Source: an uncultured Pirellulales bacterium (GTDB taxonomy: Bacteria > Planctomycetota > Phycisphaerae > Sedimentisphaerales > Anaerobacaceae). Taken from it: a stretch of 59,741 nucleotides of DNA. Position 1 is the first letter of the stretch; each line of letters starts with the position of its first letter. Made by a program: the position numbers and the translations under genes. This document shows positions 3,912 through 23,285 of this stretch, one piece after another. The notes under the pieces are model-generated. The model was given only the letters and a program-made list of their open reading frames with translations. It did no database searches and was not told the DNA's origin. The stretch lies in contig CAYVIT010000002.1 of the NCBI GenBank assembly GCA_964451425.1, positions 25,750 to 85,490 of the forward strand. Reading direction: 5' to 3'.

Positions 3912-4439
3912 TTAACTCCTTTGTTTCTTAGCGGCTTTTTCTGCTCCAATCTTTTTCCAGGATAGAATCACTGTCAGTAAATACAGGATAAGAGCCGGAA
4001 TAAAAAACGCAAGACATAATAATTCTAACTGTTGCTTCGTTATGATTCTCCACAGAGGTATTGATTTATTTGGCCAAAACAGGCGTACATCGGGGTGGTA
4101 AATGCTGTCGATTACGACGTGCAGCCAAACGCCAAGAATACCTGAGATAATCATCTTCCAGAGGCTGGTTTTGTAGGGTAATCGGAGTATTTGCATTATT
4201 TTTTTGAAGACGTTTCGCAGCGGCCAGGCGGCCAGCGCCCAGATGATGCCTGCCGCAGTCCCTAATAAGAGAGTGTGAATATATCTGTGGATGGGGTAAT
4301 GAACATCAAGCAGCGCTATAATCAAAACCTCAACGTCGACAATTACGTTGGCCAGGAGAAAGACAGGGATATCAATCCACTTTCTAAAAGCCAGGCCGAT
4401 AAAGCCGCTCGGTCCAAAATGATATGGCGTATAGGGCAT
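3912..4439 (-). CDS. polytopic His-rich membrane protein (possible membrane-bound metal-dependent hydrolase)
   Basis: About five TM segments with conserved-looking His residues (MPYTPYHFGP, HYPIHRYIH, YHPD). It lies 2 nt upstream of the next gene, so it is probably co-transcribed with 3013-3909 and 2441-2989. Confidence 0.4.
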   Translation of the reverse strand: MPYTPYHFGPSGFIGLAFRKWIDIPVFLLANVIVDVEVLIIALLDVHYPIHRYIHTLLLGTAAGIIWALAAWPLRNVFKKIMQILRLPYKTSLWKMIISGILGVWLHVVIDSIYHPDVRLFWPNKSIPLWRIITKQQLELLCLAFFIPALILYLLTVILSWKKIGAEKAAKKQRS

Positions 4440-4540
4440 TTGAATGAGCCTTCAAGGAATAACAATTGAGTAAGAAATTATTTTCTGTGAGCTTACTTTG
4501 TGGTTTTGGGTGTGTCAAATGTTAAGGGTAGGGGGCGCAT

Positions 4541-4564
4541 AAAAAAACCGCCCGAAGTGAGCGG
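4541..4564 (-). terminator. intrinsic terminator (minus strand)
   Basis: The minus strand reads CCGCTC-ACTTC-GGGCGG followed by TTTTTTT: a 6-bp stem with one G-U pair, a 5-nt loop and a 7-T run. Confidence 0.6.
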
Positions 4565-4978
4565 TATCAGAAGAAGTAAAAAATCCAGGGGGGTTAACAT
4601 AAGGCGATATAACTCAGTACAGCGAGGAACAAGATTCGCCTTTTGTTCATTGTAAACGGAAGCCAGATTTCATAATAAAATTTTGTCATCGCCCTTCTGG
4701 AAGCCAGAACCTTTAAATTCTTAATTCTTAAATTACAATGTTATTATACCCGAAAAGAGTAGTCGAAATCAAGAAAAAAATTATTTATGTGAACATAAGT
4801 ATTTATTATTTAAGACATTACGACAATGGAATCCCGCGATTTTTTTGGGTTGCTACCGAAGCCTGAAATCCGAAAACATATCTCAAATCTTTAGGATATC
4901 AGCCGGCACGATAAGTAATACAGTTATAGGTCTTTTAAATATGGTCACCTGACAAGAGCTAATCAATAATCATACGAC

Positions 4979-6211
4979 CTAAGCTAATTTGTTTGCGGCT
5001 TCTGCGACAAGTCTGCCTATCGGCAGGTGCTGTGGGCAGCGGGCTTCCGCCAGACTAAAATCAGTGCTCAACAGTTTGTTTCTTACCTTGCCGGGGATTT
5101 GAGCAAAAAGCTGTTTTGCTTCTTCATGTTCGCCATAGCTTTTATGGTACATTAAATAGCGCATAATGTCACTGATATAAGGTGTGTCCGGCAGGGCTGA
5201 GTTGCAGATGTTTGCACAGCCGGCACAATAACCATCGCAGGTTGCGCGGGCGTATTCTGTGAGGGCCTGCGTGTCGGCCTGAGTGAGTTTTGTTTTGTCG
5301 AGGGCGGCGGCGACATTTGAACTTAGCTCACGGATGCTCTTCATTCCTACACAGACTGCAGTAAACCTTTTGTCCTCCAGGACGGCTTTTATCTTTGCCT
5401 GCTCTTTGGTAAAACCCCGCTGCAGGAAGTGGTCGGTGAGTTTTTTGTCCTCATCGGTTGTAATCTTCTGGCCCATTCCGAGCGTTTTTATTGCCATAAT
5501 TCCCTTGCCTGCTTTGTGGCAGGCATCAATGGCGGCGTTCAGTTTTTTATCCTGCATTAAACGGAAGTTATAGATTGTCATTACGACTTCAATCCAGTCG
5601 AGTTTGGCGGCGGCGGCAAGGACGTCGGCCATATTCTGGTGGGTACTGATGCCAAAATGCAGAATCAGTTTGCGTTTCCTTGCACTTTGGGCCCATTCCT
5701 TCAGCTCGTTTGTTAAAAAGGCAGGGTTAGAGCACTGATGGTAGCCATAGTACAGGTCAATGTAATCCGTGTTCATTCTCTTCAGCGAGGTCTGAAGGCG
5801 CTTTTCCACATCTGCGACTGTTCTTGCGCCGGATGCCTTGCTGGCAATGAAAAACTTCTTTCGTGCCTTCGGGTTTTTCGCCAGGATTTTACCTATGCCA
5901 AGCTCACTGTTTCCACCTGTATAATTGTGTGCGGTATCCCAGTAATAAACGCCCCACTGAGGAGCTTTTCTTAAAACTATCTGGTTGGCAATGAGGTCTT
6001 GATTTCCGCCCACGCACAGGCAGGGGACCTTAACGCCCGTTTTACCCATTTTTCGTTTGGGTACCTGTGGGTACTTTGGTTTTTTCGCTGTGTCGTTTGT
6101 CTGGCTTTGTGCGGCTATGCTATCAGCCGAAGCGAAAACGGAGCCCAGGCTGGTGGCCCCCACAGTCTTCAAAAAATTTCTTCTATTGATTTTATTGTGT
6201 TTTTCTTTCAT
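4979..6211 (-). CDS. Tat-signal aldo/keto reductase with C-terminal Cys-rich (putative Fe-S) extension, paralog 1 of 4
   Basis: Twin-arginine motif NRRNFLKT. AKR active-site context (WDTAHNY..GNSELGIG, SKASG, STHQN). C-terminal CDGYCAGCANIC ... RCPQHLP. I prefer the ATG at 6211 with GGAG upstream over the GTG at 6229 used by the track. Confidence 0.8.
   Translation of the reverse strand: MKEKHNKINRRNFLKTVGATSLGSVFASADSIAAQSQTNDTAKKPKYPQVPKRKMGKTGVKVPCLCVGGNQDLIANQIVLRKAPQWGVYYWDTAHNYTGGNSELGIGKILAKNPKARKKFFIASKASGARTVADVEKRLQTSLKRMNTDYIDLYYGYHQCSNPAFLTNELKEWAQSARKRKLILHFGISTHQNMADVLAAAAKLDWIEVVMTIYNFRLMQDKKLNAAIDACHKAGKGIMAIKTLGMGQKITTDEDKKLTDHFLQRGFTKEQAKIKAVLEDKRFTAVCVGMKSIRELSSNVAAALDKTKLTQADTQALTEYARATCDGYCAGCANICNSALPDTPYISDIMRYLMYHKSYGEHEEAKQLFAQIPGKVRNKLLSTDFSLAEARCPQHLPIGRLVAEAANKLA
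5029..5113. repeat. 85-nt block identical between AKR paralogs 1 and 2, copy A
   Basis: GCTGTGGGCAGCGGG...GAGCAAAAAGCTG is identical to 6283-6367 at an offset of 1254 nt. The flanking coding sequence is visibly diverged. Confidence 0.85.
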
Positions 6212-6232
6212 CGTATTAAACTCCAACACCAG

Positions 6233-7483
6233 TTAGGCTAACTTGGTAACCGCTTCTGCGACGAGGTTGCATATCGGCAGATGCTGTGGGCAGCGGGCTT
6301 CCGCCAGACTAAAATCAGTGCTCAACAGTTTGTTTCTTACCTTGCCGGGGATTTGAGCAAAAAGCTGCCTTGCTCTATTTTGGTCGCCATAGCTGTTGTA
6401 GTACATCAGATAGCGCATAATGTCACTGACGTATGGTGTGTGCGGTAATGCGGCGTCGCAGATGTGTGCGCATCCGGCGCAATAACCGGTGCAGGTTGCG
6501 TGGGCATATTCCTTGAAAATCTCGATGTCCGTTTGTGTAAGCTCTGTTTTATCCAGGACGGCAGCGACGTTTTTAGTTAAGACAGCGACGTTTTCCATCT
6601 GAACGGGCGCGGCACTTATCCTTTTGTCTTGTAATACAAGTTTTATGGCAGCCTGCTCCGGACTAAAGCCCCGCTGTATAAAGTTACTGACGAGCTTTTT
6701 ATCTGCTTCCGTTTCAATTGCGAGCTTGAATCTGCTAATAGTAGTCCTGCCAGTCGTTTTCATTGCAATAATGGCAATCCCGGCTTTGTGGCACGCTTCA
6801 ATGGCGTCCATAAGTTTAGAATCCTGCATCAGGCGGAAGTTATAACTTGTCATAACCGCATCAATCCAGTCGAGCTTGGCAGCGGCGGCGAGGCAGTTGG
6901 CCATATTTTTATGCGTTGTGAAACCAAAAAACCTTATGAGCTTGCGTTTCTTCGCACTTTCGGCCCATTGCTTTAACTCATTTGTAAATTGGCCGGGATC
7001 GGTTGCTCCGTGCGGGGCATAGTACAAATCAATGTATTTTGTATTCAGTCTTTCCAGGGAGGCCTGAAGGCGTTTTTCGACATCAGCGACCGTTCTTGCT
7101 CCGGAAGCCTTTGTTGCCAGGAACAAGTCTTTTCGGACTTCCGGATTATTCATAAGGTATTTACCGATACCGAGCTCGCTGTTTCCGCCTGCATAACCGT
7201 AAGCTGTATCCCAATATTTAACACCCCACTTAATGGTGTTCCTTAGAACGACCTGGCTATCAATAAGGTTGAACATTGTCCCGAGGCCCAGACATGGAAC
7301 CTCGACGCCGGTTTTGCCGAGCTTTCTTTTGGGCATCTTCGGGGCGCTGGATTCCTGCGGGTTTTTTTCAGTGTTTGAGCTTACCGGCTTTGTGGAGGTG
7401 AAAACAGAACCCAATCCTGCTGCGACTATTGTGCTATCGCGGATAAACTTACGCCGAGTTACTTTGTTATCGTTATTATTCAT
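6233..7483 (-). CDS. Tat-signal aldo/keto reductase with C-terminal Cys-rich extension, paralog 2 of 4
   Basis: Twin-arginine motif TRRKFIRD, AKR motifs (WDTAYGY..GNSELGIG, TKASG, TTHKN), and the tail CTGYCAGCAHIC ... RCPQHLP. Its stop lies about 21 nt upstream of the paralog 1 ATG. Confidence 0.8.
   Translation of the reverse strand: MNNNDNKVTRRKFIRDSTIVAAGLGSVFTSTKPVSSNTEKNPQESSAPKMPKRKLGKTGVEVPCLGLGTMFNLIDSQVVLRNTIKWGVKYWDTAYGYAGGNSELGIGKYLMNNPEVRKDLFLATKASGARTVADVEKRLQASLERLNTKYIDLYYAPHGATDPGQFTNELKQWAESAKKRKLIRFFGFTTHKNMANCLAAAAKLDWIDAVMTSYNFRLMQDSKLMDAIEACHKAGIAIIAMKTTGRTTISRFKLAIETEADKKLVSNFIQRGFSPEQAAIKLVLQDKRISAAPVQMENVAVLTKNVAAVLDKTELTQTDIEIFKEYAHATCTGYCAGCAHICDAALPHTPYVSDIMRYLMYYNSYGDQNRARQLFAQIPGKVRNKLLSTDFSLAEARCPQHLPICNLVAEAVTKLA
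6283..6367. repeat. 85-nt block identical between AKR paralogs 1 and 2, copy B
   Basis: See 5029-5113. Confidence 0.85.
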
Positions 7484-7648
7484 CGTTTATTTCCTTTCCT
7501 GGTAGGTTTCTGATGTAGTTTTTGGTATCTGTCGTGCACAAATTAACGTTATCTGCCTTATTCTTTTATAACTGCTTATCCATACGATATATCATTATTG
7601 TACGTTAGGGTCTCCATGCCGGGATGTATTATTGCAGAATCTCTGAAA

Positions 7649-7996
7649 GGGTCAAGTCATTTATTTTTTGGCCTGTATGTAGTGTAGGTATGTGCGGCTG
7701 GTTATCCTTGTAGCTGTGCTCAAATACGGGATTTGAAAAAGCGCTTAGGCCAGCTTGCGGACTGCTTCAGCGACCAATTTAGCTATCGGCAAATGCTGCG
7801 GGCAGCGTGTTTCTGCGTGCGTGTAATCGATGCGCAGCAGTTTATTTCTTATGCCGGACGGAAGTTTAGCGAAAAGGTTCCTTGCTCTATTCCTGTCGCC
7901 GTAACTGTTGTAGTACATCAAGTAGCGCATAATGTCACTGATGAAAGGCGTGTCCGGCAGGGCGGAGTCGCAGATGTATGCGCAGCCGGCGCAATA
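7649..7996. repeat. segmental duplication, copy A (3' end of AKR paralog 3 plus downstream non-coding sequence)
   Basis: It matches 9143-9490 at a constant offset of 1494 nt. I count about 5 mismatches in 348 nt by eye. Confidence 0.85.
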
Positions 7997-9034
7997 ACCG
8001 CTGCAGGTTGCGAGGGCATGTTCTTTGAGGGTTTCCATATCTTGTTTTGTAAGATTGGTTTTATCGAGGACGGCCGCGACGTTTTGTGCTAAGATACTAA
8101 CATCCTGCATGCCTACACAGGCTGAGCTAAATCTTTTGTCCTGCAATACGGCCTTTATTTTTGCCTGTCCTTCAGTAAAACCTTTCTGCAGGAAATGTCC
8201 AGCCAGTTTTTTATCTTCTTTAGTTTCAATTTTTTCCTGTGGACGTCCCTGAGTTTTCATAGCGATAAGACCTATACCTGCTTTATGGCAAGCCTGAATT
8301 GCATCCTGTAGTTCGTTGTCCTGCATTATCCGATAACTGTAAGTCGTCATTACCACGTCAATCCAGCCGAGCTTGGCAGCGGCGGCGAGGCACTTGGCCA
8401 TATTTTTATGGGTGCTGAAACCAAAAAATCGTATTAGCTTTCTTTTCTTTGCACTTTCGACCCACCGCCTTAAATCATCGGTCAGCTTTGCGGGGTCAGA
8501 TAATCCGTGGCCGACGTAGCCGGAACCTGCCTTTCGGTCCATGATGTAGTAGATGTCGATGTATTTGGTGTTCATTCTTTTCAGGGATGCTTGAAGGGCG
8601 TTTTCCACATCGTTGATGGTAACGGCATCCGATGCCTTGGTGACAAGAAACAGTTTCTTTCGGGCGTCAGAGTGCTTCGAGAAGAATTTGCCTATGCCAA
8701 GCTCACTGTTTTCGCCGGCATAGTCGGGTGCTGTGTCCCAAAGACGGACTCCCCACTGGAAACATTTTTCTAATATTGTCTGGTTCTCAACCAAATTGAA
8801 TAGCGCGCCAAGAGCCAGGGAGGGGACTTCAATGCCTGTTTTACCCAACTTTCGTTTCGGCACCTGCGGATATTCGGGTTTTTGTGCTTTTCCTTGTGCG
8901 TTCGGGTCAGCAGCATTTAGCTCCTTTTCTTCATTGCTCTTGCATCCGTGAAGAAAAGAACTTAGTCCTGCTGCGACCATCGCGCTATCGTGGATAAACT
9001 TGCGCCGAGTTACTTTGTTATCGTTATTATTCAT
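7745..9034 (-). CDS. Tat-signal aldo/keto reductase with C-terminal Cys-rich extension, paralog 3 of 4 (chimeric)
   Basis: The N-terminus MNNNDNKVTRRKFI is shared with paralog 2. The last ~84 aa are identical to paralog 4. AKR motifs are present. Confidence 0.8.
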   Translation of the reverse strand: MNNNDNKVTRRKFIHDSAMVAAGLSSFLHGCKSNEEKELNAADPNAQGKAQKPEYPQVPKRKLGKTGIEVPSLALGALFNLVENQTILEKCFQWGVRLWDTAPDYAGENSELGIGKFFSKHSDARKKLFLVTKASDAVTINDVENALQASLKRMNTKYIDIYYIMDRKAGSGYVGHGLSDPAKLTDDLRRWVESAKKRKLIRFFGFSTHKNMAKCLAAAAKLGWIDVVMTTYSYRIMQDNELQDAIQACHKAGIGLIAMKTQGRPQEKIETKEDKKLAGHFLQKGFTEGQAKIKAVLQDKRFSSACVGMQDVSILAQNVAAVLDKTNLTKQDMETLKEHALATCSGYCAGCAYICDSALPDTPFISDIMRYLMYYNSYGDRNRARNLFAKLPSGIRNKLLRIDYTHAETRCPQHLPIAKLVAEAVRKLA

Positions 9035-9142
9035 CGTTTATTACCTTTCTTGATAGGTTTCCGATATACTTTCGAAGTATCTGCGAAACCACAAATTAAT
9101 AGCGCCTTGGTACCAGTATTTATTGTTGCAAAATTTCGGAAT

Positions 9143-9490
9143 GGGTCAAGTCATTTGTTTTTTGGCCTGTGGGTAGTGTAGGTATGTGCGGCTGGTTATC
9201 CTTGTAGCTGTGCTCAAATACGGGATTTGAAAAAGCGCTTAGGCCAGCTTGCGGACTGCTTCAGCGACCAATTTAGCTATCGGCAAATGCTGCGGGCAGC
9301 GTGTTTCTGCGTGCGTGTAATCGATGCGCAGCAGTTTATTTCTTATGCCGGACGGAAGTTTAGCGAAAAGGTTCCTTGCTCTATTCCTGTCGCCGTAACT
9401 GTTGTAGTACATCAAGTAGCGCATAATGTCGCTGATGAAAGGTGTGTCCGGCAGGGCGGAGTCGCAGATGTATGCGCAGCCGGCGCAATA
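9143..9490. repeat. segmental duplication, copy B (3' end of AKR paralog 4 plus downstream non-coding sequence)
   Basis: See copy A. The identity breaks down abruptly after about 9490. Confidence 0.85.
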
Positions 9491-10513
9491 AGTGCTGCAG
9501 GTTGCGCGGGCGTATTCATTTAGGGCATCTCTATCTGCCTGCGTAAGTTTGGTTTTGTTCAGAACGGCATCGATGTTTGTAGTTAAAAGAGAAATGTTCT
9601 GCATTCCGACGCAGACGGCGCTGAACCGTTTGTCCTGCAGGATAACTTTTATCTTTGCCTGTTCCTGGGTGAAGCCTCGCTTCTGGAAGTGGTCGAGGAG
9701 CTTCTTGTCCTGTTCGGTCTCTACCGGCTGGATACGTCTGACTCCGCGAGAGAAGGCTTTCATCGCAGTAAGACCAATGCCGGCTTTATGACAGGCCTCA
9801 ATAGCAGCCTGCATATCATCATTCTGCATAACCCGGAAATTGTAAAGTGTTGTTATTGCATCAATCCAGTCGAGTTTGGCGGCAGCGGCGAGGCATTTGG
9901 CCATATTTTTGTGGGTGCTGAAACCAAAAAAACGTATCAGTTTGCGTTTCTTCGCACTTTTGGCCCACTGCTTTAATTCGTCTGTGAGTTGTGCGGGGTC
10001 AGACAGGCCGTGACAGGCATAGTATAAATCGATGTAATCGGTATTCATTCTTTTCAGAGAGGTCTGAAGACGTTCTTCGACCTTCTCGGCGGTTATCGGC
10101 CCCCAAAAAATTGCCGTCTTGCTTACGATGAATAATTGTTTTCGCGCCTTCGGATTCTTCGTGATGAATTTGCCTATGCCAAGCTCTGCGTTTCCGCCTC
10201 CATAGTTGTGAGCGGTGTCCCAACAGGTTACGCCGGACTCGAAGGCTTTTCTTAAAACGATTTGCTTATCAGTAAAACTAAAGTCCCCGCCCAAAGACAG
10301 GCACGAAACCTCAACGCCTGTTTTGCCGAGCTTTCGCCTTGGTATCTGTGGAGGTTTAGGTTTTTTTGCTTGTTCGGGAGCATTAGGGTCAATGGTCTTC
10401 AGGTCGTCCTGGCCGGTTATCGCTTCATCCGAAGCAAAAACGGAGCCTAATCCTGCTGCTCCAATAGTCTTCAGGAAATTTCTTCTGTTGATTTTATTTA
10501 GATTTTCTTTCAT
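9239..10513 (-). CDS. Tat-signal aldo/keto reductase with C-terminal Cys-rich extension, paralog 4 of 4
   Basis: Twin-arginine motif NRRNFLKT, AKR motifs (WDTAHNYGGGNAELGIG, STHKN), and the tail CSTYCAGCAYIC ... RCPQHLP. The ATG at 10513 with GGAG upstream lies 20 nt after the polyferredoxin stop. Confidence 0.8.
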   Translation of the reverse strand: MKENLNKINRRNFLKTIGAAGLGSVFASDEAITGQDDLKTIDPNAPEQAKKPKPPQIPRRKLGKTGVEVSCLSLGGDFSFTDKQIVLRKAFESGVTCWDTAHNYGGGNAELGIGKFITKNPKARKQLFIVSKTAIFWGPITAEKVEERLQTSLKRMNTDYIDLYYACHGLSDPAQLTDELKQWAKSAKKRKLIRFFGFSTHKNMAKCLAAAAKLDWIDAITTLYNFRVMQNDDMQAAIEACHKAGIGLTAMKAFSRGVRRIQPVETEQDKKLLDHFQKRGFTQEQAKIKVILQDKRFSAVCVGMQNISLLTTNIDAVLNKTKLTQADRDALNEYARATCSTYCAGCAYICDSALPDTPFISDIMRYLMYYNSYGDRNRARNLFAKLPSGIRNKLLRIDYTHAETRCPQHLPIAKLVAEAVRKLA

Positions 10514-10533
10514 CACATTCAACTCCAAAAAGA

Positions 10534-12273
10534 TTAATTCTTGAGTAACAACTTTCTGTCCATACTTCTTGTCTCGCCTTCGGCGGAGACTCTAACGGCT
10601 TTTTTGCCGCTTACGGGGCATTCGTGTTCGCAGACGCCGCAGCCGATACATTTTTCGATATCCACATAGGGCCTCTGGAGTCGAACTTGGATTTCAATTT
10701 TACCGCCGGCAGGCGGGATTTTTTCGAATCGCTCGTCAGGTGAGATTACGACAGTGTTTTCGGTGTTTGCCGTGATTTTCCTGCGATCACTGCCTCGGAC
10801 AACACAATAATAGTCGCCGGTGGCGAATTTGTCAGGGACGATGGACGTTTCGATTTCTATAGTGTTATCGGTGATTTGTTTTACCGTTAAAATACCATCT
10901 CTTATTGTATTGAAACACTCTTCGGTGTAAATTGCCTTGGGACTTAGGGGGCAGTTTTCCTCGCAGACTATACAGGGCTTGTCCATCGCCCAGGGCAGAC
11001 ACCTGTTTCGGTCAAAGAAGGCGGTGCCGAGCTTGATTGGCCCGGTCTCGGCAAATTCATCCAGTCCGTGTTTTTCGGCGAGGGTAATCGGCCTGATGGC
11101 TGAGGTAGGGCAGACTTGGCCGCATGCAACGCAGTTCAACTGGCAGCCGCTTGAGCCGATGCGGTTGTTGAGGACAGGGGTCCAGAGATTCTCCAGGCCT
11201 CCTTCGATGCCGCCCGGCTGGAGAACGTTTGTAGGGCAGACACGCATGCACTGGCCGCACTTTATGCATCTTTTTAAGAATTCCTTTTCCGCCAGTGCAC
11301 CGGGGGGACGAATGACTTTGTGATACCAGTTGTCGCCCAGTTTGTTACCGAGCCTGACAGCCGGTACTGCAACAATGCCGCCGGCAAGTGAAAGCACAAA
11401 ACCTCTGCGAGAGATGTCCGGGTTGGTGATTTCACCTGCCGGCGAGGGTGTGGTTTGATAGCTAATCAGTTCGTCTTTGCAGTCCTGGCGACAGTTGAAG
11501 CAAAGCACGCATTCACTAATCCTTATGTTGCCGCTGGGTTCGCAGCCGCCTTCGCAGGAGCGCTCGCATAATTTGCAGTTTGAACATTCAGCCTGGTTTT
11601 TGCCGATTCGCAGGATAGCAAACCTTCCGAGGATGCCGAACAATGCGCCGAGGGGACAAATAAATCTACAGTAGAAGCGGGGGATGACAAGGTTGAGGAG
11701 GACCGCTGTGAAGAAAATAAGGAGTATCAACCAACCCGCCTCATAAAAGCGAGGTGTTGCTGAGACAAAGTTAACGCTTCTATCGGCAATGGACAGTAAT
11801 GACTGAAAAGAACGGGTTACCAGCGGTATGGGGTCGAGCAGACTTGTTTGTAAGGTGGATCCGATCGATGGAAAGGCGGCCATAAACAGAAAGAATATGA
11901 GAATGATATATTTTATACACTGGGCCTTTCGGTATTTGTTGAGCTGTATTCTTTTAGCGAGCTTTGTTTTTCGATGGGCCAAATATCCGACGAAGTGATG
12001 CAGTGAGCCGAATGGACAGACCCAACTGCAAAAGAACCGGCCCAATATTATGGTCAATATAACAGTTACGAGGGCCCAGAGGAGGGGCCAGTAAAGTGTA
12101 TGTGTAGTCAATATTGTCCCGATTGCCACCAGGGGGTCGAGCTGCAGGAACCAGTTAACGGGCCAGGAGCGGAGCTGCCAGAATTTTTCTCCTACTGTGG
12201 CGACTATACAGAACCAGACAAACAACGAGAAAAAGAAGGTCTGACTTATGCGTCTGACTGTTACAATTTTCAT
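10534..12273 (-). CDS. integral-membrane polyferredoxin, NapH/NosR-like
   Basis: The N-terminal half has about six TM segments carrying two CX3CP motifs (CSWVCP, CRFICP). It is followed by several ferredoxin-type motifs (CSNCKLCERSC, CIKCGQCMRVCP, CVACGQVCP, CIVCEENCP, CIGCGVCEHECP). I chose the ATG at 12273; a GTG at 12279 is also possible. Confidence 0.75.
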   Translation of the reverse strand: MKIVTVRRISQTFFFSLFVWFCIVATVGEKFWQLRSWPVNWFLQLDPLVAIGTILTTHTLYWPLLWALVTVILTIILGRFFCSWVCPFGSLHHFVGYLAHRKTKLAKRIQLNKYRKAQCIKYIILIFFLFMAAFPSIGSTLQTSLLDPIPLVTRSFQSLLSIADRSVNFVSATPRFYEAGWLILLIFFTAVLLNLVIPRFYCRFICPLGALFGILGRFAILRIGKNQAECSNCKLCERSCEGGCEPSGNIRISECVLCFNCRQDCKDELISYQTTPSPAGEITNPDISRRGFVLSLAGGIVAVPAVRLGNKLGDNWYHKVIRPPGALAEKEFLKRCIKCGQCMRVCPTNVLQPGGIEGGLENLWTPVLNNRIGSSGCQLNCVACGQVCPTSAIRPITLAEKHGLDEFAETGPIKLGTAFFDRNRCLPWAMDKPCIVCEENCPLSPKAIYTEECFNTIRDGILTVKQITDNTIEIETSIVPDKFATGDYYCVVRGSDRRKITANTENTVVISPDERFEKIPPAGGKIEIQVRLQRPYVDIEKCIGCGVCEHECPVSGKKAVRVSAEGETRSMDRKLLLKN

Positions 12274-12319
12274 AATCACACTTTCAAAGCTGTGAAGGTT
12301 TTCGATCTATTGTGATAAG

Positions 12320-13732
12320 TTAATTTCCAATCATTATTTTTCCAAGATGGTACCAGCCGTCATCCTGCTTTCCGGATATAGCAAGTTGGACTTTAGGCTT
12401 ATTGGACTGCGGCTCAAGGATGCCGATTTGCAGGTCGTATTGGCCCGTAGGCATATCAGATGGAACCAGAACAGAGTCATCATAGAGGTTATCACCCGGC
12501 AGCCAGGTTGTGATATCGGCGTTGGTTACCAAGATTTCAGTTTTTTTGTCGTTTTTCAGGCGAAGAGCGAGAGGGAATTTTTTGTAACACGGTGCAACGC
12601 CCTTATTGTCCCACCAGGAAGTGAAAGACAGCTTACTGTTTGGATTCAGTGCTGCCGGGTATGTAAACTTGCGAAGCACAAGTCTGTACCCCATTTTCCC
12701 GAGCCACCTGTTGACGGCAGGCCACCATTCTTTCGGGACCGGTGAGGACTTGGCGTTGAAGGAAGAGATGTGCCATTTGAGGGACTCGTCAATAATATAG
12801 TCCACGTCCCAGCCCATATCCTTCCAGTGCTGCATTACCCAGCATACCTCAAGTGTCACGGGGGCTTTTTTCCAGGCATCTTTAACACCGAAATTGATTA
12901 TTGCCTGCGGATAGTAATCGTTCATGTGCGACCAGTTGGCACTGAATCCTCCCATATCTCCGAGACAATCGACCCTCCAGCCGACGTCCGCACTTGAAAG
13001 GGCGCATCTGTTTGTTTTCTTATCGGTAAGGAGCATGACGAGATGTGTTTTCTTAAAGGAGTCGATATAGGCGTCGACCAGTGCCTGTCTCGTTTTATCT
13101 GTCAATAGAGCAGAGCCTGCCCCTTCGCCCCAGGCACCGACAATAGAAACGTCGACGCTTTCAAGGTCTGGGTGGCCGTCATAGTGTTTGCCCAGGATTT
13201 TTACCATCTTTGTGAAGTGCATAACATAGCGTGGGTCTTCCGGGTCAACCTGCCATTTTTTCACCGGTAAATCTTTTCTCTCGCCGACCATTGCACGGTA
13301 CCAGTCGGGGACATCATTTTCCGTTCCCGTGCCGTATGGGGCGATGCGCAACATAAGGGTCTGCTGTCTCTGGTGAGCTGTTTCGAGGGCTTTATCTATC
13401 AGGTCCCAGCGATATTTGCCCATATTCGGTTCGATGAACTTCCAGTAAATTCGGAAGTACGCTATGGTTGTCATCGGATAATCTTTGTTTTCCAGATTGC
13501 CATCGAATTCCTGGTAAACAATGGGCTTGCCCTCGGTCCAGCGTTTTGCTTGATTTAGGGTGTCTCCGTTGAATCTCTGAAAGGTCATAAAGCCGATTCC
13601 GGGATTGGTGAGGATGTCGTCGATTTCCGTTGGCCGAACGGTAACTGTTTCCTGCGCAAAGACCGAAGTAAAGGACAGGCCTATTAGTATGATTGTGACT
13701 GAGAAGACTATGATTAAACGTGAAATATGCAC
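12320..13732 (-). CDS. secreted TIM-barrel glycoside-hydrolase-like protein (DUF4874/DUF4832-like)
   Basis: Sec signal peptide ending VFAQ. Motifs NPGIGF, WKFIEP..GKY.W and GAWGEG resemble clan GH-A barrels. GTG start with AAGGAG 8 nt upstream. The family name is from memory. Confidence 0.5.
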   Translation of the reverse strand: MHISRLIIVFSVTIILIGLSFTSVFAQETVTVRPTEIDDILTNPGIGFMTFQRFNGDTLNQAKRWTEGKPIVYQEFDGNLENKDYPMTTIAYFRIYWKFIEPNMGKYRWDLIDKALETAHQRQQTLMLRIAPYGTGTENDVPDWYRAMVGERKDLPVKKWQVDPEDPRYVMHFTKMVKILGKHYDGHPDLESVDVSIVGAWGEGAGSALLTDKTRQALVDAYIDSFKKTHLVMLLTDKKTNRCALSSADVGWRVDCLGDMGGFSANWSHMNDYYPQAIINFGVKDAWKKAPVTLEVCWVMQHWKDMGWDVDYIIDESLKWHISSFNAKSSPVPKEWWPAVNRWLGKMGYRLVLRKFTYPAALNPNSKLSFTSWWDNKGVAPCYKKFPLALRLKNDKKTEILVTNADITTWLPGDNLYDDSVLVPSDMPTGQYDLQIGILEPQSNKPKVQLAISGKQDDGWYHLGKIMIGN

Positions 13733-13808
13733 GACAAGTTCTCCTTCGGTTTTATTTGAATCTGAAATTCTTATTCGTTATATATAATTGTTGTTTCATA
13801 GGCAAGTT

Positions 13809-14804
13809 TTACACTGTTCCCATTATCGGCTTGAGTGACTCTAAGTCGGTTGTTCCTGCGCCGGCGGTTTGGGCTTTTGCAAGGTAGGGCAGGTCCGCGG
13901 GTTTCAAGTCCAGGAGAGTGCAGCCATAGGAATCCGCAGCTACCATGTCGCAGCTTGCAATGACTGTGTTTGCCCGTTTCAAATCCGACACGGAGCCGCC
14001 GGTCGGGCCGTTGGTCATCATAACTTCGGTACCATCGAGTATGACCAGTGTCGGTTTTACCATCATGGCCAGCTCGGCGATGATGGTGTTGATATCCTGG
14101 TGAAAGATGTTGCGGCGTCCGCCCAACAGGCCATAGAAGTTTTTCATTGTCATTGAGGCGCCGGCCCTTGCGTGGTGTTTGACGGGTGTGATTCCAATCA
14201 GTTTATCGACCTTGGCAAACGGGCCAAAGAAGATAGGCCAATTCTTAATGAGTTTGCCGCCCTCAAGAGTAGTGTGCCTGAAATGATATTCTCGTGGCAA
14301 TATGACCTTGGCACCGGCCTGGCTTGCCGCTTTGCCAACGCCGCTCAACATGAAGCAGCTCGCGGGGTCGTTAATCGGATTGTCGGTAACGATGACCTGT
14401 GCGGCTCCAGCTTTGAGACAGAGCGTTACGACCTGGGCTACGAGTTCGGGCTGGGCAGTGGCGCCGAGCATTGGCGGTGAAGCAAATGCAACATTCGGCT
14501 TTATCGCGACCGTTTCGCCTTCCTTGACGAATCTTTCTATGCCGCCGAGCAGCTCTATCGCTTTGGTAACGGTTTGTTTTCTGTCCGGGCCTTCGACTAT
14601 GCTTATTGTGTCACCGGCTTCGTGGGGAACTGAAAAGTCGGCTAAAGTAACAAGGTCTTTGCTTTTTGCACTGAGTCTCGATGGGCCTTTTCTGTCATAA
14701 AGTAGATAGGAAACTGTACCCGCGGCGGCGATTGAAAGTCCCGCTTTGCCGGCGCGGGTAAGGAGCCGCCTTCTGTTAAAGTATTTGTCGTTTGGATTAG
14801 TCAT
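13809..14804 (-). CDS. Tat-signal DUF362-family protein
   Basis: Twin-arginine motif NRRRLLTRAG. The motifs VAIKPNV and ILDGTEVMMTNGPTGG are typical of DUF362 as I recall it. Its start overlaps the upstream stop by 8 nt (ATGACTAA). Confidence 0.6.
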   Translation of the reverse strand: MTNPNDKYFNRRRLLTRAGKAGLSIAAAGTVSYLLYDRKGPSRLSAKSKDLVTLADFSVPHEAGDTISIVEGPDRKQTVTKAIELLGGIERFVKEGETVAIKPNVAFASPPMLGATAQPELVAQVVTLCLKAGAAQVIVTDNPINDPASCFMLSGVGKAASQAGAKVILPREYHFRHTTLEGGKLIKNWPIFFGPFAKVDKLIGITPVKHHARAGASMTMKNFYGLLGGRRNIFHQDINTIIAELAMMVKPTLVILDGTEVMMTNGPTGGSVSDLKRANTVIASCDMVAADSYGCTLLDLKPADLPYLAKAQTAGAGTTDLESLKPIMGTV

Positions 14805-15798
14805 TGCTCATTGCCTTTGCCTGGCTGAGTTTGTTAATGAGTATTGTTGCTAATTTTTCCGCGTACTGTTGATTCTCTGCCTCGTGAATGCCGACAACAA
14901 ATGGCCCTGTTGCAAAGACAATTTCAGTTGTGTCATAGAAGTCGACAACTTTTCCTTCCAGGGCTTTAGTGATTGCCGGCTTTGCCACGCCGCCGTTTTC
15001 TATTAAAAACTTATGATAGCTTTTAGCTACAAGCCGGGCATCCTGTGGGTCCGGACGTCTGCTGAGGAATGCGGTAATGGTCTCGTCACCGAATTTGTAT
15101 TGTGCGGTAAAAATGTCAGTGAATCCTTCAAAGCCAAATGCACTTGCCAGATATAATTTGTGGCTGCCGGCGGCGAGGTTCTCATGTGGGAAATAACTTA
15201 ACTCAGGGATTTCGGTATCAGCATCAGGCGGTAAATTCGCCTGAATCTTTTGAGCGGTTTCTATCATTGCTTTGAATAACTCGTCCGATTTCGAGGAGGC
15301 GATAAATTCGACATAGTATTTGCCGTGGACAAAATACGGAGCATTGGTAGTTCTATAGCCAAACTGCATATCCGGCAGCATCTCGACATCGGGCCTTTTT
15401 TGTACGCTATAAACGGAAAAAGCGTTTTTGATGTTGGCCATATCAAAGATGAAGAGTTCCATCCATAGATTCTCATCGCTCTTGCTTAAGAATCGGGCGC
15501 TTGAGAGTTTTACGAAGCCGGATTCGATGTAAAGAGGGGCTTTTCCGTTAATTTTTTCATAAAGATTGTCAGCAAGATAGGTTTCTTCAGAAAGTGTTTC
15601 AAAACCGGCAGGGACGAGGGAGGTTAGAGATATTTTTTCCGTCCCCGGGCCTGAGAGGACTGTGCCCACACCAAACCGGGTCATATCGTAGTCGGATTGT
15701 GTTATCAATATGGTAATTGCGATGAGTATGAGAACCACCAGTAAGGAGAGGCCCACAATAGATTCGAGTTTTTTGGGTTTGCCTTTAATCGAATCCAT
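14797..15798 (-). CDS. N-terminally membrane-anchored protein of unknown function, first gene of the cluster
   Basis: A single TM segment (IVGLSLLVVLILIAITILI) is followed by a soluble domain. The ATG at 15798 is preceded by GGAG at 6-nt spacing; the track uses a TTG at 15819. Confidence 0.55.
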   Translation of the reverse strand: MDSIKGKPKKLESIVGLSLLVVLILIAITILITQSDYDMTRFGVGTVLSGPGTEKISLTSLVPAGFETLSEETYLADNLYEKINGKAPLYIESGFVKLSSARFLSKSDENLWMELFIFDMANIKNAFSVYSVQKRPDVEMLPDMQFGYRTTNAPYFVHGKYYVEFIASSKSDELFKAMIETAQKIQANLPPDADTEIPELSYFPHENLAAGSHKLYLASAFGFEGFTDIFTAQYKFGDETITAFLSRRPDPQDARLVAKSYHKFLIENGGVAKPAITKALEGKVVDFYDTTEIVFATGPFVVGIHEAENQQYAEKLATILINKLSQAKAMSND

Positions 15799-15824
15799 AG
15801 CTAACTCCAATAATGGCAATTTAC

Positions 15825-15885
15825 CTGTTAGAAGTCCTTCATTGGAAAATTTCTAACAGCGATTGCTTGACCCTAAGGTTCAAGC
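15825..15885 (-). promoter_or_regulatory. structured leader or operator region of the cluster
   Basis: There is a near-perfect palindrome GCTTGA-N9-TCAAGC at 15865-15885, at the predicted transcription start. A perfect 9-bp inverted repeat CTGTTAGAA/TTCTAACAG lies at 15825-15833 and 15851-15859. Confidence 0.45.
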
Positions 15886-15887
15886 GG

Positions 15888-15916
15888 ATTATAGTTTCAG
15901 TCTGAATTTTTGTCAA
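15888..15916 (-). promoter_or_regulatory. sigma-70 type promoter, perfect consensus
   Basis: The minus strand reads TTGACA - 17 nt - TATAAT. Confidence 0.6.
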
Positions 15917-15942
15917 TATTGGATTTTTCAGGTTAAGAGCAG

Positions 15943-16701
15943 ATGCGAACTATAAGAATAGCTATGGCCCAGATATTTTGCCTCGATGGTGACCGCAGCG
16001 GTAATTTTGTCCGAATTGAAAATGCGATTCGGGAGGCCAAAGCCGGTGATGCTGATATTATTTGCTTTCCTGAGACGGTGATACTCGGTTGGGTAAACTC
16101 TGATGCACACAAGAGGGCATTTCCAATTCCTGGTGAAGATTCTGAACGTCTTTGTGAGTTAGCTAAAAAATATGAAATCTTTCTCTGCGTCGGTCTTGCG
16201 GAAAAAGACGGAATGAAGCTGTATGATTCGGCTTTGTTAATTGACGAGAAGGGGCGTATTGTTCTTAAACACCATAAAATAGACATATTGACGGATTTGA
16301 TGACACCACACTACACGCCGGGCAAAGAGGTCAATGTGGTGGATACTGAATTCGGGAAAATCGGGGTGCTAATCTGTGCGGATACACATTCAGATGAAAT
16401 TCTGGAGCGAATGACCGAGCTGAAGCCGGATTTTCTGCTGGTTCCATACGGATATGCAGAGAGGGAAAAAAACTGGCCGGAACATGGCAGGAAACTTGAG
16501 AAGGTTGTCGTTAAAGCGGCGAAGATAACAGGAGCGTTTGTTGTCGGAACCAATGTTGTCGGAGAAATAACCAAAGGACCCTGGAAAGGTCGGATATTCG
16601 GCGGACACAGCGTTGCGGCCGATAAAAACGGTAAAATACTTACAATTGGCACAGACCGAGACCGTGAGATAAAGATTGTTTCTGTAAGGACAAAAAGATA
16701 A
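15943..16701 (+). CDS. carbon-nitrogen hydrolase (nitrilase superfamily)
   Basis: The Glu-Lys-Cys triad contexts are present: ICFPET, LKHHKI, GVLICAD. The 252-aa size fits. Confidence 0.8.
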   Translation: MRTIRIAMAQIFCLDGDRSGNFVRIENAIREAKAGDADIICFPETVILGWVNSDAHKRAFPIPGEDSERLCELAKKYEIFLCVGLAEKDGMKLYDSALLIDEKGRIVLKHHKIDILTDLMTPHYTPGKEVNVVDTEFGKIGVLICADTHSDEILERMTELKPDFLLVPYGYAEREKNWPEHGRKLEKVVVKAAKITGAFVVGTNVVGEITKGPWKGRIFGGHSVAADKNGKILTIGTDRDREIKIVSVRTKR

Positions 16702-16819
16702 TCGCTTAAAGGTTAATTTTACGGTGTAAAGACAGTTTTTTCTGAGTCGTGCCGGTCGGCTCTATCAGAGTTGCTCAGGGCAAAGAAAATACTGTAAAAA
16801 AATAAGATTTCTAATGGGA

Positions 16820-16849
16820 TTGACAAAATAGTCCAGATGGTGCTATAAT
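16820..16849 (+). promoter_or_regulatory. sigma-70 type promoter with extended -10 upstream of tatA
   Basis: TTGACA - 18 nt - TATAAT, with TGc immediately before the -10 (TGcTATAAT). Confidence 0.5.
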
Positions 16850-16878
16850 ATAATTTTTGATAATAATAGGAGACTAAT

Positions 16879-17154: not shown

Positions 17155-17212
17155 TTATTGGTAATTGATAATCCATACAGCCATTTATCAATAATCAGTG
17201 ATCAATTTTGAT

Positions 17213-23219: not shown

Positions 23220-23285
23220 ATTAAAGGCAAGAGATGCCTTGCCCGGCCCGGCCAGGGATAACAGGCCGGTTGTGTTTGAATGGGA

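Follow-up and report, generated by a model that had tools for sequence, protein, structure and literature searches.

A planctomycete gene cluster centred on a polytopic polyferredoxin: a candidate extracytoplasmic electron-transfer system

What is the function of a cluster of eight genes whose products are all predicted, from their motifs, to be membrane-bound or exported? A preliminary description of the window (the whole 59,741-nucleotide stretch analysed here, from an uncultured planctomycete) had listed eight co-directional minus-strand genes and read them as a NapH-like polyferredoxin serving Tat-exported aldo-keto reductases (AKRs). An ORF check located all eight between 4979 and 15819 (Table 1), and profile HMM matches, which for the Pfam families exceed the curated cut-offs, bear out each family assignment. 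The "membrane-anchored unknown protein" is a DUF6599 protein with an N-terminal transmembrane (TM) anchor, and the Tat-signal DUF362 protein combines its family match with a twin-arginine motif. The Sec-signal, glycosidase-like TIM barrel is a DUF4832 protein with a partial GH42 match and a Sec-type signal; the polyferredoxin (PFD) is followed by four AKRs that all carry a twin-arginine motif. We propose, with modest confidence, that the cluster encodes an extracytoplasmic electron-transfer system in which PFD is the hub, the DUF362 and DUF6599 proteins are ancestral partners, the AKRs are added clients, and electrons flow outward. We know of no characterised system of this make-up.

Table 1. 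Coordinates of genes and signals in and around the cluster
Feature	Position	Strand	Basis and remarks
Intrinsic-terminator-like hairpin and T-run	4547..4565	minus	7-bp stem, 5 GC pairs, then TTTTTTT
AKR paralogue 4: Tat signal NRRNFLK, Cys5 tail	4979..6229	minus	PF00248; likely start ATG 6211
AKR paralogue 3: Tat signal TRRKFI, Cys5 tail	6233..7483	minus	PF00248
Internal promoter-like site	7628..7655	minus	TTGACC-16-AATAAT with TG; in 261-nt gap 5' of AKR3
AKR paralogue 2: Tat signal TRRKFI, possible lipobox-like LHGC, Cys5 tail	7745..9034	minus	PF00248
Internal promoter-like site	9122..9149	minus	duplicate of 7628..7655 site; in 204-nt gap 5' of AKR2
AKR paralogue 1: Tat signal NRRNFLK, AKR barrel, Cys5 tail	9239..10528	minus	PF00248; likely start ATG 10513
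Polytopic polyferredoxin PFD, NapH-NapG fusion	10534..12279	minus	2x Fer4_5 and dicluster Fer4; likely start ATG 12273
Sec-signal DUF4832/GH42-like TIM-barrel protein, accessory	12320..13732	minus	PF16116, 67.6 bits
Tat-signal DUF362 protein, LarA clan	13809..14804	minus	PF04015, 147.4 bits
DUF6599 protein, N-terminal membrane anchor (residues 21-39)	14797..15819	minus	PF20244, 147.9 bits; likely ATG 15798 (333 aa)
Sigma-70-type promoter, TTGACA-17-TATAAT	15888..15916	minus	12/12 consensus matches, 17-nt spacer; 5' of first gene
Second perfect promoter consensus	16820-16849	plus	5' of tatA/tatC, divergent from cluster
tatA	16879-17154	plus	PF02416
tatC	17198-18247	plus	PF00902

The promoter matches the consensus at every position, as had been claimed, and is the sole perfect minus-strand site within 4400-17000; by our own calculation, about 0.005 perfect matches are expected by chance in sequence of this size. 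Both internal promoter-like sites fall inside a duplicated tract of 94-100% identity, and their presence before AKR2 and AKR3 means that one single transcript is not assured. The hairpin in Table 1 is the first terminator-like element 3' of the last AKR. The DUF362 start does overlap the preceding stop by 8 nt (14797-14804). The 20-nt gap described between the polyferredoxin and the first AKR holds with the ATG at 10513, which is also the start of a database protein (P0121) 100% identical to AKR1, but with an upstream TTG the gap is 5 nt. The Tat genes on the other strand, placed about 1 kb away in the preliminary description, are confirmed by Pfam at a distance of about 1.06 kb. They are divergent neighbours of the module in about 24 related loci, and in one locus (L153) TatC, DUF362 and PFD are all co-directional.

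What kind of protein is PFD? Its sequence features place it in the known dual Sec/Tat polytopic polyferredoxin family, described as NapH-NapG fusions with three cytoplasmic and four periplasmic clusters; in one member, Sec places helices 1-4 in the membrane and Tat then adds helix 5 (Tooke et al. 2017, PMC5449189). That work concerned membrane insertion only and assigned no function or partner (PMC5449189). PFD residues 3-277 match the NCBIfam NapH model and residues 291-457 the NapG model, in both cases below the cut-off (87 against 234 bits and 71 against 269 bits, respectively). Two Cx3CP motifs (84-89 and 204-209) immediately follow TM2 and TM4, strict CxxCxxCxxxC motifs lie at 232, 257, 338, and 544, and variant four-Cys motifs lie at 379 and 427. 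Since this makes six four-Cys motifs in all, the earlier count of "at least four CxxCxxCxxxCP" is roughly right, although only two of the four strict motifs are followed by Pro. An internal twin-arginine motif, S-R291-R292-G-F-V, precedes the least hydrophobic TM segment by hydropathy (TM5, 293-311), with R309 and K312 at its end. The predicted layout comprises TM1-4, with both Cx3CP motifs and the four-Cys motifs at 232 and 257 on the cytoplasmic side, and those at 338, 379, 427, and 544 in the periplasm. The RR motif, both Cx3CP motifs, an RPPG motif, and all cluster Cys residues are invariant in 30 diverse family members (33-62% identity); the internal RR is shared by 29 of 35 close homologues and, among 150 family representatives, by most. 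The NapH-like reading therefore stands insofar as NapH-like and NapG-like halves are both present, but NapG is fused into the same polypeptide, which has an internal twin-arginine motif, and is not a separate Tat-exported partner.

Which neighbours belong with PFD? The order DUF6599-DUF362-[DUF4832]-PFD-AKR is kept on one strand in 39 AKR-seeded, species-level Sedimentisphaerales/Phycisphaerae loci and is identical in all six PFD-seeded loci, one of which has unrelated flanks. The genes are thus strongly co-conserved, with one to four AKRs per locus. In about 7 of 29 module loci, DUF4832 separates DUF362 from PFD. However, the co-occurrence in Sedimentisphaerales is mostly inherited synteny among relatives, which weighs against our preferred explanation. 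We also collected distant PFDs from unrelated metagenomes (34-59% identical to the representative P0392; 27 complete loci; neighbours within 4 kb). The most constant neighbour is a Tat-signal DUF362 protein (22/27), followed by DUF6599 (15/27), while a Tat-signal, Cys-tailed AKR is nearby in four; some PFDs adjoin an RdhA-like Fe-S protein in place of DUF362. On these neighbour counts, the core unit appears to be Tat-DUF362 plus PFD, with or without DUF6599, the AKRs appear to be clients whose family has expanded in this lineage, and the glycosidase-like gene, present in about a quarter of loci, an accessory.

The AKRs share a Tat motif and a Cys-rich tail that could accept electrons. Among 127 AKRs, 122 carry the RR motif and 118 the Cys tail. 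In 61 sequences the catalytic residues D104, K137, and H173 are invariant and Y109 is kept in at least 90%; likewise, C348, C351, C355, and C411-P-Q of the tail are invariant and C344 is kept in at least 90%. Foldseek confirmed the AKR fold of the AKR1 AF2 model, the best structures being AKR14A1; the barrel is mostly above pLDDT 90 and the tail lies at 53-78. The last ~85 residues of AKR2 are identical to those of AKR1, a gene-conversion tract, and indels among the paralogues are located in loops after beta-4 and beta-7. Several canonical nicotinamide contacts are altered: SN is ST205, a conserved Gln is Met or Thr, and YSPL is MK257T. The tail matches no Pfam Fe-S family; it is most likely a remnant ferredoxin-like domain with one [4Fe-4S] cluster. 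Its likely source is the cytoplasmic AKRs that carry a two-cluster ferredoxin domain at the C terminus (COG1453), on whose function our literature search found no paper; an AKR from one distant locus (L110) retains two full four-Cys...CP motifs. The window also encodes a Tat-lipoprotein AKR without any Cys tail (25105-26019), and periplasmic AKRs of this organism therefore need not depend on Fe-S input.

All 48 homologues compared with the DUF362 protein (31-51% identity) keep its RR motif (residues 11-12); there is no conserved Cys, and the cofactor is therefore presumably not an Fe-S cluster. The DUF6599 product, 100% identical to a 333-aa database protein (P0241), has a two-domain alpha/beta periplasmic part without Cys (AF2 model pLDDT 84; weak Foldseek matches only) and is probably a scaffold or ligand-binding subunit. 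The signal peptide of the DUF4832 protein ends in VFA-QE; its partial GH42 match scores 26 bits and its DUF4874 match is under the cut-off.

From the observed gene content, motifs, folds, and co-conservation, we infer cluster binding, wiring, direction, and substrates as follows. Sec would insert the four NapH-like helices of PFD, so that both Cx3CP motifs and a pair of [4Fe-4S]-type motifs stay facing the cytoplasm, and the internal twin-arginine motif would then hand helix 5 and the folded, four-cluster NapG-like domain to Tat for transfer to the periplasm. The resulting trans-membrane iron-sulfur chain would link periplasmic partners, to which PFD most likely carries electrons, with either quinol or a cytoplasmic reductant as donor or acceptor on the cytoplasmic side. 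Its ancestral, widely kept partners would be the Tat-exported DUF362 protein and the membrane-anchored DUF6599 protein. In the Sedimentisphaerales, Tat-exported AKRs that keep the catalytic tetrad intact and end in a Cys5 tail may have been added and amplified as clients, the tail cluster docking to the NapG-like domain. Flow toward the periplasm, reducing exported or external carbonyl compounds, is the more likely direction, and several carbonyl substrates are probable because the paralogues differ in their substrate loops. Against this explanation, an Fe-S cluster transfers single electrons while AKR chemistry is hydride transfer, and no flavin or other one-/two-electron converter is evident; the replaced nicotinamide contacts, the missing Pfam Fe-S match and moderate pLDDT of the tail, and the tail-less Tat-AKR count against it as well.

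Could the AKRs be bystanders? The functional unit may comprise only DUF6599, Tat-DUF362, and PFD, with the AKRs as unrelated periplasmic enzymes that take up NADP(H) or a different cofactor ahead of Tat export, for which the NADP-loaded, Tat-exported glucose-fructose oxidoreductase of Zymomonas is a precedent. This would agree with the constant neighbours of distant PFDs, which are DUF362 and DUF6599 rather than AKRs, and with the tail-less Tat-AKR in the window. Moreover, for 16 tail-AKR arrays a PFD is absent from at least the surrounding 2.5 kb, so the PFD-AKR link is not obligatory at the locus level, and several of these arrays share one chromosomal position, 5' of epimerase-YdjM-TyrRS, which suggests an ancestral site of the AKRs. 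We nonetheless consider this reading improbable. AKRs with RR signals and Cys tails recur beside PFDs only 34-45% identical to P0392, in other gene orders, twice on the opposite strand and once (L085) overlapping the PFD stop by 4 nt; their recurrence in other lineages and arrangements argues for a functional link over inherited synteny. The module also keeps an AKR in a different genomic context (L001, L025), and an invariant five-Cys tail that descends from a two-cluster motif needs a redox partner where, as in this compartment, soluble ferredoxin is absent. The pairing of PFD with AKRs is thus supported by these AKRs, their Tat motifs, and a tail that could accept electrons, but not as the main partnership of the family, which is with DUF362.

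The preliminary description had further suggested that the AKRs perhaps act on sugar aldehydes released by the co-encoded glycosidase-like protein; the cluster would then be a redox pathway devoted to glycan processing. Sugar carbonyls are substrates of many AKRs, and the DUF4832 protein combines a GH42-type barrel match with a Sec signal. Gut metagenomes, in addition, contain fusions of DUF362 domains to CBM9 and dockerin modules (PMC5742341). The idea finds little support, because DUF4832 is missing from about three-quarters of module loci; it is also absent from all distant PFD loci examined, the cluster holds no transporter, PUL-like genes, or other CAZymes, and we regard such a pathway as quite improbable. 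Reversed flow through the same wiring is also unlikely, though less so: the Cys-tailed AKRs, and possibly DUF362, would be periplasmic dehydrogenases of sugars or alcohols, whose electrons leave via the AKR Fe-S tail to PFD and thence the quinone pool or a cytoplasmic acceptor. AKR reactions are reversible, and the anatomy of PFD is symmetrical as to direction. NapGH is a quinol dehydrogenase, and NapH-like modules also occur with oxidases such as the ExaA alcohol oxidase (PMC8238504). Against reversal, the relatives are MAGs from anaerobic sediments. Sedimentisphaerales are probably mainly fermentative, so a high-potential quinol sink would be lacking, and in such fermentative anaerobes we favour outward flow. 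If our proposal of a PFD hub with outward flow is true, exported Fe-S-tailed AKRs are wired to a membrane polyferredoxin in anaerobic sediment planctomycetes.

Finally, how does the cluster compare with known systems? PFD shares with Q1NSB0 of delta-proteobacterium MLMS-1 (PMC5449189) five TM segments, two Cx3CP motifs, cytoplasmic four-Cys motifs, a twin-arginine motif before a weakly hydrophobic TM5 with positive charges, and four periplasmic four-Cys motifs. It differs in having, between periplasmic clusters 3 and 4, an extra insertion that makes this stretch ~65 residues longer than is usual in the family, a common trait of the Sedimentisphaerales branch. The AKRs share with AKR14A1/YghZ, Kv-beta2, and Tm1743 the (beta/alpha)8 barrel (Foldseek TM-score ~0.77, target-normalised) and the Asp-Tyr-Lys-His tetrad, but they also have a Tat signal, to which some paralogues add a lipobox, and several of their NADP contacts are altered. 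Their C-terminal tail of ~85 residues holds five conserved Cys, four of them invariant. For the DUF362 protein, the only characterised relative in Pfam clan CL0471 is the lactate racemase LarA (DUF2088) (PMC11770544). The spacing of the conserved R109/D141/H211/K221/H235 resembles that of LarA R75/H108/H174/K184/H200, a lead only. Sequence and profile comparison with LarA structures detected no match, Asp would stand in place of the first catalytic His, and the DUF362 protein is Tat-exported and adjoins a polyferredoxin. With the NapGH quinol dehydrogenase of E. coli and Wolinella, the cluster shares a NapH-type membrane Fe-S protein, a NapG-type periplasmic four-cluster ferredoxin, and the logic of feeding a Tat-exported periplasmic reductase. 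Here, however, the halves are fused and score far under the equivalog cut-offs, no napA/napB or other molybdoenzyme is nearby, and the clients are DUF362 and AKR proteins. NapH-like proteins are regarded as modules that carry electrons across the membrane for reductases and oxidases outside the cytosol (PMC8238504). Like NosR/NosZ, PceC/RdhA, and the flavinylated NapH-like clusters (Meheust et al. 2021, PMC8238504), our cluster joins a modular NapH-type Fe-S conduit to varying periplasmic oxidoreductases, and some PFD loci likewise pair with an RdhA-like protein. Those systems bear an outer, ApbE-flavinylated FMN-binding domain, whereas a Pfam scan found no FMN-bind or ApbE gene in this cluster, and a NapG-like four-cluster domain stands in that place. 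We rate the PFD cluster as a variant of the NapH-type extracytoplasmic electron-transfer systems.

Which proteins does the polyferredoxin (PFD) of the cluster serve, and which of its neighbours travel with it? The preliminary description had reported eight co-directional minus-strand genes behind one perfect promoter, with the DUF6599 stop and DUF362 start overlapping by 8 nt, and tatA and tatC close by on the other strand; ORF calls, Pfam matches and the 12/12 promoter site bear out this account. The remaining gaps, in transcription order, are 76, 40 and 5-20 nt, and those inside the array of aldo-keto reductases (AKRs) are 204, 261 and 3-21 nt, with weaker promoter-like sites in both long gaps, ahead of AKR2 and AKR3. 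Two 12/12 promoters lie about 1 kb apart, with the Tat genes running one way and the cluster of Tat substrates the other. Rfam matched no riboswitch or other RNA element inside the cluster or ahead of it; its sole matches were two tRNAs elsewhere.

Features of the window and their positions (window nucleotides)
Feature	Position	Strand	Description
Gene cluster	4979-15819	(-)	eight ORFs
DUF6599		(-)	first gene; PF20244, 147.9 bits (cut-off 27)
DUF362		(-)	second gene; PF04015, 147.4 bits (cut-off 24), profile 1-199 of 200
DUF4832		(-)	third gene; partial GH42 match alongside
PFD	10534-12279	(-)	fourth gene; 581 aa; two Fer4_5 domains and several dicluster Fer4 families
AKR1-AKR4		(-)	last genes; PF00248, 77-89 bits (cut-off 24); 416-429 aa
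Cluster promoter	15916..15888	(-)	TTGACA-17-TATAAT, 12/12
Terminator-like hairpin	4565..4547	(-)	3' of last AKR
Near-identical tract, ~350 nt	7630-8000		AKR2 3' end and downstream spacer
Near-identical tract, ~350 nt	9124-9494		AKR1 3' end and spacer
Promoter-like sites	7655..7628; 9149..9122		duplicated with the tract
Second promoter	16820-16849	(+)	perfect consensus TTGACA-18-TATAAT, extended -10 TG; 30 nt upstream of tatA
tatA and tatC	16879-18247	opposite to cluster
LexA, then Y-family polymerase	22605-25002	(+)	polymerase IMS + DUF4113
Fifth AKR	25105-26019	(-)	304 aa, PF00248
AddB/AddA-type pair	31479-38700	(+)	helicase-nuclease
dnaA	46209-47549	(+)
PEP-CTERM paralogues	47723-48523; 48963-49775	(-)	~270 aa; sorting motifs at ends

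The flanks of the cluster carry several landmarks. GC skew is steadily positive elsewhere and becomes flat or slightly negative just past dnaA (48000-52000), so that a replication origin may lie inside or close to the window. The LexA and Y-family polymerase genes look like an SOS mutagenesis cassette, and the window also encodes the helicase-nuclease pair and the two PEP-CTERM paralogues.

The window belongs to a planctomycete of Sedimentisphaerales/Phycisphaerae type known from sediment metagenomes. A scan seeded with an AKR alignment, using one genome per GTDB species, returned 77 loci, all from Planctomycetota except two contigs (L045 and L058; JAIVYN01, a 'Candidatus Aegiribacteria' MAG). 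The PFD of these contigs is 81% identical to that of the window and their AKRs with a C-terminal Cys-rich segment (tail-AKRs) are 65-70% identical; because of the former value, and because all other matches are planctomycetal, these contigs were probably misbinned, and horizontal transfer is the less likely account. The order DUF6599-DUF362-[DUF4832]-PFD-AKR is kept on a single strand in 39 loci, while 24 loci are interrupted by contig ends and 16 hold Cys-tailed AKR arrays with PFD absent within at least 2.5 kb, several of these orphan arrays occupying the window-equivalent chromosomal position upstream of epimerase-YdjM-TyrRS. Directly behind PFD, the array comprises one AKR in 14 loci, two in ten, three in five and four in two. 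Since this set was seeded with AKRs, PFD homologues were also examined directly, and the module was present in six of six, one of them with unrelated flanks and without DUF4832; the neighbourhood check called for in the preliminary description thus came out in favour of the cluster. In about two dozen loci a divergent tatC-tatA pair adjoins the module.

What remains of the module in distant lineages? A metagenome scan for PFD neighbourhoods was started from diverse representatives of the family, and its hits were ranked by a 500-aa member that shares only 39% identity with the window PFD. It gave 80 loci, whose samples were soils, peat, freshwater and marine sediments. Neighbours were counted with HMMs of window-lineage proteins, iterated once on their hits, in the 27 loci offering at least 3.5 kb on either side of PFD. 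DUF362 lies within 4 kb of PFD in 22 of the 27, DUF6599 occurs in 15, every time together with DUF362, and a Tat/Cys-tailed AKR occurs in four; five loci have none of the three. The weaker DUF362 and DUF6599 calls were upheld by Pfam, the distant DUF6599 proteins scoring 62-149 bits. From these counts we conclude that the conserved core is Tat-DUF362 plus PFD, often with DUF6599, and that the Fe-S-tailed AKR is an optional yet recurrent client, amplified in Sedimentisphaerales. The earlier proposal of a NapGH-like module feeding AKRs is partly upheld: it is reasonable and is strengthened by the independent distant co-occurrence, with DUF362 and not the AKRs as the constant partner.

The distant tail-AKRs are heterogeneous in arrangement. 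Those neighbouring PFD in five loci (L084, L085, L093, L110 and L151) all carry RR signals and Cys tails. Relative to PFD their genes are variously upstream, downstream or on the other strand; in L085 the AKR overlaps the stop of PFD by 4 nt. Many distant modules contain paired DUF362 paralogues. For example, six loci (L090, L092, L094, L097, L106 and L158) encode two side by side together with a DUF6599 gene, one paralogue near the window type and one divergent, both with RR motifs. In another locus (L153, 1-3168) tatC, DUF362 and PFD are co-directional and overlap or abut, and this links the module independently to the Tat machinery.

A search for further module partners beyond DUF362 and DUF6599 was unproductive, the other recurring neighbours being heterogeneous housekeeping proteins (spermidine synthase-like, radical SAM, Memo/AMMECR1, SDR, ETF and amidase). 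The sole exception is a reductive-dehalogenase-like Fe-S protein, which adjoins PFD in three or four of the five exception loci. In L108, L114, L130 and L135, PFD sits beside such an RdhA-like protein (PF13486 + Fer4) and a TonB-dependent-type outer-membrane barrel, with no adjoining DUF362. These neighbours suggest that PFD may serve different periplasmic clients in different lineages.

The polyferredoxin itself can be placed with some precision. In its NapH-like half, its twin-arginine motif before TM5 and its NapG-like domain it matches the PFD family of Tooke et al. (2017), which has five TMDs, a conserved twin-arginine motif ahead of TMD5 and three cytoplasmic and four extracellular clusters, which those authors call a NapH-NapG fusion, and whose fifth helix is Tat-dependent by reporter fusions (PMC5449189). 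Judged by these sequence features, the window protein is a member of this dual Sec/Tat family, and its C-terminal domain is, by analogy, best read as moved across the membrane by Tat. TM1-4 span residues 11-29, 66-84, 125-143 and 181-199, with C84x3C88P and C204x3C208P right behind TM2 and TM4 and cytoplasmic CxxCxxCxxxC motifs at 232 and 257. The twin-arginine stretch D-I-S-R291-R292-G-F-V-L-S-L directly precedes TM5 (293-311), which has the lowest hydropathy among the predicted TM helices (1.71) and the positive residues R309 and K312 close behind, and four 4-Cys motifs with CP ends follow at 338, 379, 427 and 544 in the NapG-like part. The family is large, with 1058 clusters at the 50% identity level (E<=1e-30) in a search of 1.84 billion representative proteins, and the internal RR motif is found in most of the top 150 representatives. 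In an alignment of 30 PFDs (33-62% identity) the RR pair, both Cx3CP motifs, RPPG and every cluster Cys are invariant.

One feature sets the window PFD apart from typical members. A beta-rich insertion at residues ~455-540 separates periplasmic clusters 3 and 4, whose motifs are 108 residues apart versus 41 in typical members, and this lengthening of about 65 residues is common to Sedimentisphaerales-type PFDs and a few others. We considered the insertion as an AKR-docking domain and rejected this role; the PFDs of the five AKR-neighboured distant loci lack it, and it therefore tracks lineage and not AKR presence.

The export signals were assigned by motif. DUF362 begins with FNRRRLLTRAG, and its twin-arginine pair is invariant among 48 sequences of 31-51% identity, distant members included. 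The same family has zero conserved Cys and a set of conserved polar residues comprising K102-P-N104, R109, D141, K209, H211, K221-N222, R231, H235-Q236, D257, D286 and D291. DUF362 domains are also known fused to CBM9 and dockerin modules (PMC5742341). DUF6599 has a single N-terminal TM helix (21-39) after a Lys-rich stretch and contains no Cys, which makes a role as redox carrier unlikely. Its confident AF2 model (pLDDT 84) predicts that helix and two alpha/beta domains, and Foldseek gave weak two-domain matches to TP0453, RseB and the PknH sensor (TM <=0.43, rmsd up to 18 angstroms). We rejected these matches as too weak to assign a function; at most, the model weakly resembles periplasmic proteins that bind lipids or ligands. 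A literature search on DUF6599 and DUF362 (PF04015) found no functional study. DUF4832 carries a Sec-type signal ending in VFA-QE. The suggestion that this glycosidase-like protein supplies sugar-derived aldehydes to the AKRs has lost ground, since just some seven of the 29 loci showing both DUF362 and PFD have DUF4832 between them. The GH42 match of DUF4832 is partial (profile 26-134 of 376, 26 bits), and it scores 20.5 bits for GH35, where the cut-off is 500.

Textbooks present AKRs as soluble enzymes dependent on NAD(P)H, and the periplasm has no nicotinamide pool. The tail-bearing Tat AKRs of the cluster are an unprecedented class, and our literature search on periplasmic or Tat Fe-S AKRs and COG1453 found no functional study. 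Their N-termini read NRRNFLK or TRRKFI, behind which comes a stretch rich in Ala and Gly, and the RR motif is kept in 122 of 127 full-length homologues from related genomes; in 22 of those 122 a lipobox (e.g. LAGC) follows, and these would be Tat-exported lipoproteins. In an AF2 model the barrel is mostly at pLDDT >90 and the tail at 53-78. The best Foldseek match was AKR14A1/YghZ (E ~3e-17, TM ~0.77 normalised to target), and the search returned ordinary AKRs only, with nothing informative on the tail. The positions of the Asp-Tyr-Lys-His tetrad were taken from alignment to Tm1743 and YghZ; D104, K137 and H173 are the same in all 61 sequences aligned, and Y109 in at least 90% of them. All four cluster proteins belong to the (beta/alpha)8 AKR fold family with the tetrad kept.

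Several canonical NAD(P)H contacts are replaced in the tail-AKRs. In the alignment to Tm1743, the Ser-Asn site after beta-5 (GVSNF) reads GFST205H, the Gln site after beta-6 (DQVKYN) reads I(M/T)TxYN with Met/Thr for Gln, the Tyr-Ser-Pro-Leu site after beta-7 (AYSPL) reads AMK257T, and the Lys/Arg site near beta-8 (IPK) reads VGM; the last Asn (N318) is retained. NAD(P)H may or may not still bind. The tail has the pattern Cx3Cx2Cx3C...(55 aa)...CP, in which C348, C351, C355 and C411 (of the C-P-Q motif) never vary among the 61 sequences, and at least 90% of these also have C344. The L110 AKR keeps two complete motifs, Cx3Cx2Cx3CP and Cx2Cx3Cx2CCP, and by comparison with it the tail resembles a ferredoxin-like domain with two clusters, of which one site has been retained. 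No Pfam Fe-S or Fer4 model matches the tail, so that its cluster binding is putative. The paralogues differ by indels in the loops after beta-4 and beta-7, which in AKRs shape the substrate pocket, and this suggests that the four act on different substrates.

The array also bears traces of its own history. The two ~350-nt tracts are 94-100% identical, and this indicates recent gene conversion between the tandem paralogues; the N-termini are likewise mosaic, AKR2 being like AKR3 and AKR1 like AKR4.

How might these components work together? We propose that PFD would form an iron-sulfur conduit through the membrane, with Tat placing its NapG-like domain in the periplasm. This agrees with how NapH-like proteins are seen in general, namely as modular devices that transfer electrons for reductases and oxidases outside the cytosol (PMC8238504). 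The partners of PFD would be DUF362, the ancestral one, DUF6599, with a probable role in structure or ligand binding, and the Fe-S-tailed AKRs. We favour delivery of electrons to the periplasm because the relatives are, by their record titles, anaerobic sediment organisms, of a group taken to be mainly fermentative; reverse flow through the same conduit may nevertheless occur. The AKRs may also be self-sufficient and independent of Fe-S input. The fifth AKR of the window, which has the twin-arginine motif TRRQFIK followed by the lipobox LSSC, no Cys tail and, in common with the tailed paralogues, an unusual G-M-K motif after beta-7, keeps this alternative alive, since a periplasmic AKR can evidently exist without such input; its presence suggests that periplasmic AKRs may be a wider theme in this organism. 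For an AKR wired to the conduit, the main chemical problem is the one-electron Fe-S input versus hydride chemistry with flavin absent.

We rate the locus as probable NapH-type extracytoplasmic electron transfer with uncharacterised clients. Beyond this, we put forward a reading in two parts which, taken jointly, we consider possible and on balance doubtful. Tat-DUF362 and PFD, with or without DUF6599, would form a widespread undescribed periplasmic redox module in many uncultured lineages, whose terminal enzyme, the LarA-clan protein DUF362, may hold a hydride cofactor of pyridinium or nickel-pincer type, which the iron-sulfur chain would cycle. Within Sedimentisphaerales, the PFD conduit would also power periplasmic AKRs via the Fe-S tail, not via free NAD(P)H. 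Were this second part true, it would be a new way to power AKR chemistry and would point to a 'carbonyl respiration' or electron-dumping route in fermentative polysaccharide degraders. A Tat-exported, membrane-wired, Fe-S-tailed AKR would be a new enzymological mode, and would show a way for anaerobes that degrade glycans to carry out redox chemistry where no nicotinamide pool exists. The PFD family, formerly a membrane-insertion curiosity only, gains its first candidate physiological partners, and DUF362 and DUF6599 gain a concrete context that is periplasmic, Tat-dependent and polyferredoxin-linked.

Finally, the module can be compared with known systems. The flavinylated NapH-like systems (Meheust et al. 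2021) have an extracytosolic FMN-binding domain and ApbE, whereas Pfam matched neither FMN_bind nor ApbE in the eight cluster proteins or the neighbours scanned. In the NapGH quinol dehydrogenase NapG and NapH are separate, whereas here they are fused in a single sub-equivalog polypeptide. The NCBIfam NapH match covers residues 3-277 (87.2 bits versus a cut-off of 234) and the NapG match residues 291-457 (71.2 bits versus 269), and no molybdopterin or cytochrome genes (napA/napB) were found in the cluster, its flanks or the related loci examined. For these three reasons we reject NapGH proper; the protein does combine a NapH-like and a NapG-like half, and it falls in the known dual Sec/Tat PFD family. 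The remaining comparison concerns DUF362, which belongs, like the nickel-pincer enzyme LarA, to Pfam clan CL0471 (PMC11770544). The PDB was searched by sequence and by profile with DUF362, DUF6599 and DUF4832 and gave nothing usable, and because no alignment of DUF362 to LarA could be obtained, the residue correspondence is a lead only. The spacing of LarA R75/H108/H174/K184/H200 resembles that of DUF362 R109/D141/H211/K221/H235, and if DUF362 were a redox enzyme with a LarA-type cofactor, nickel-pincer chemistry would extend past racemases.
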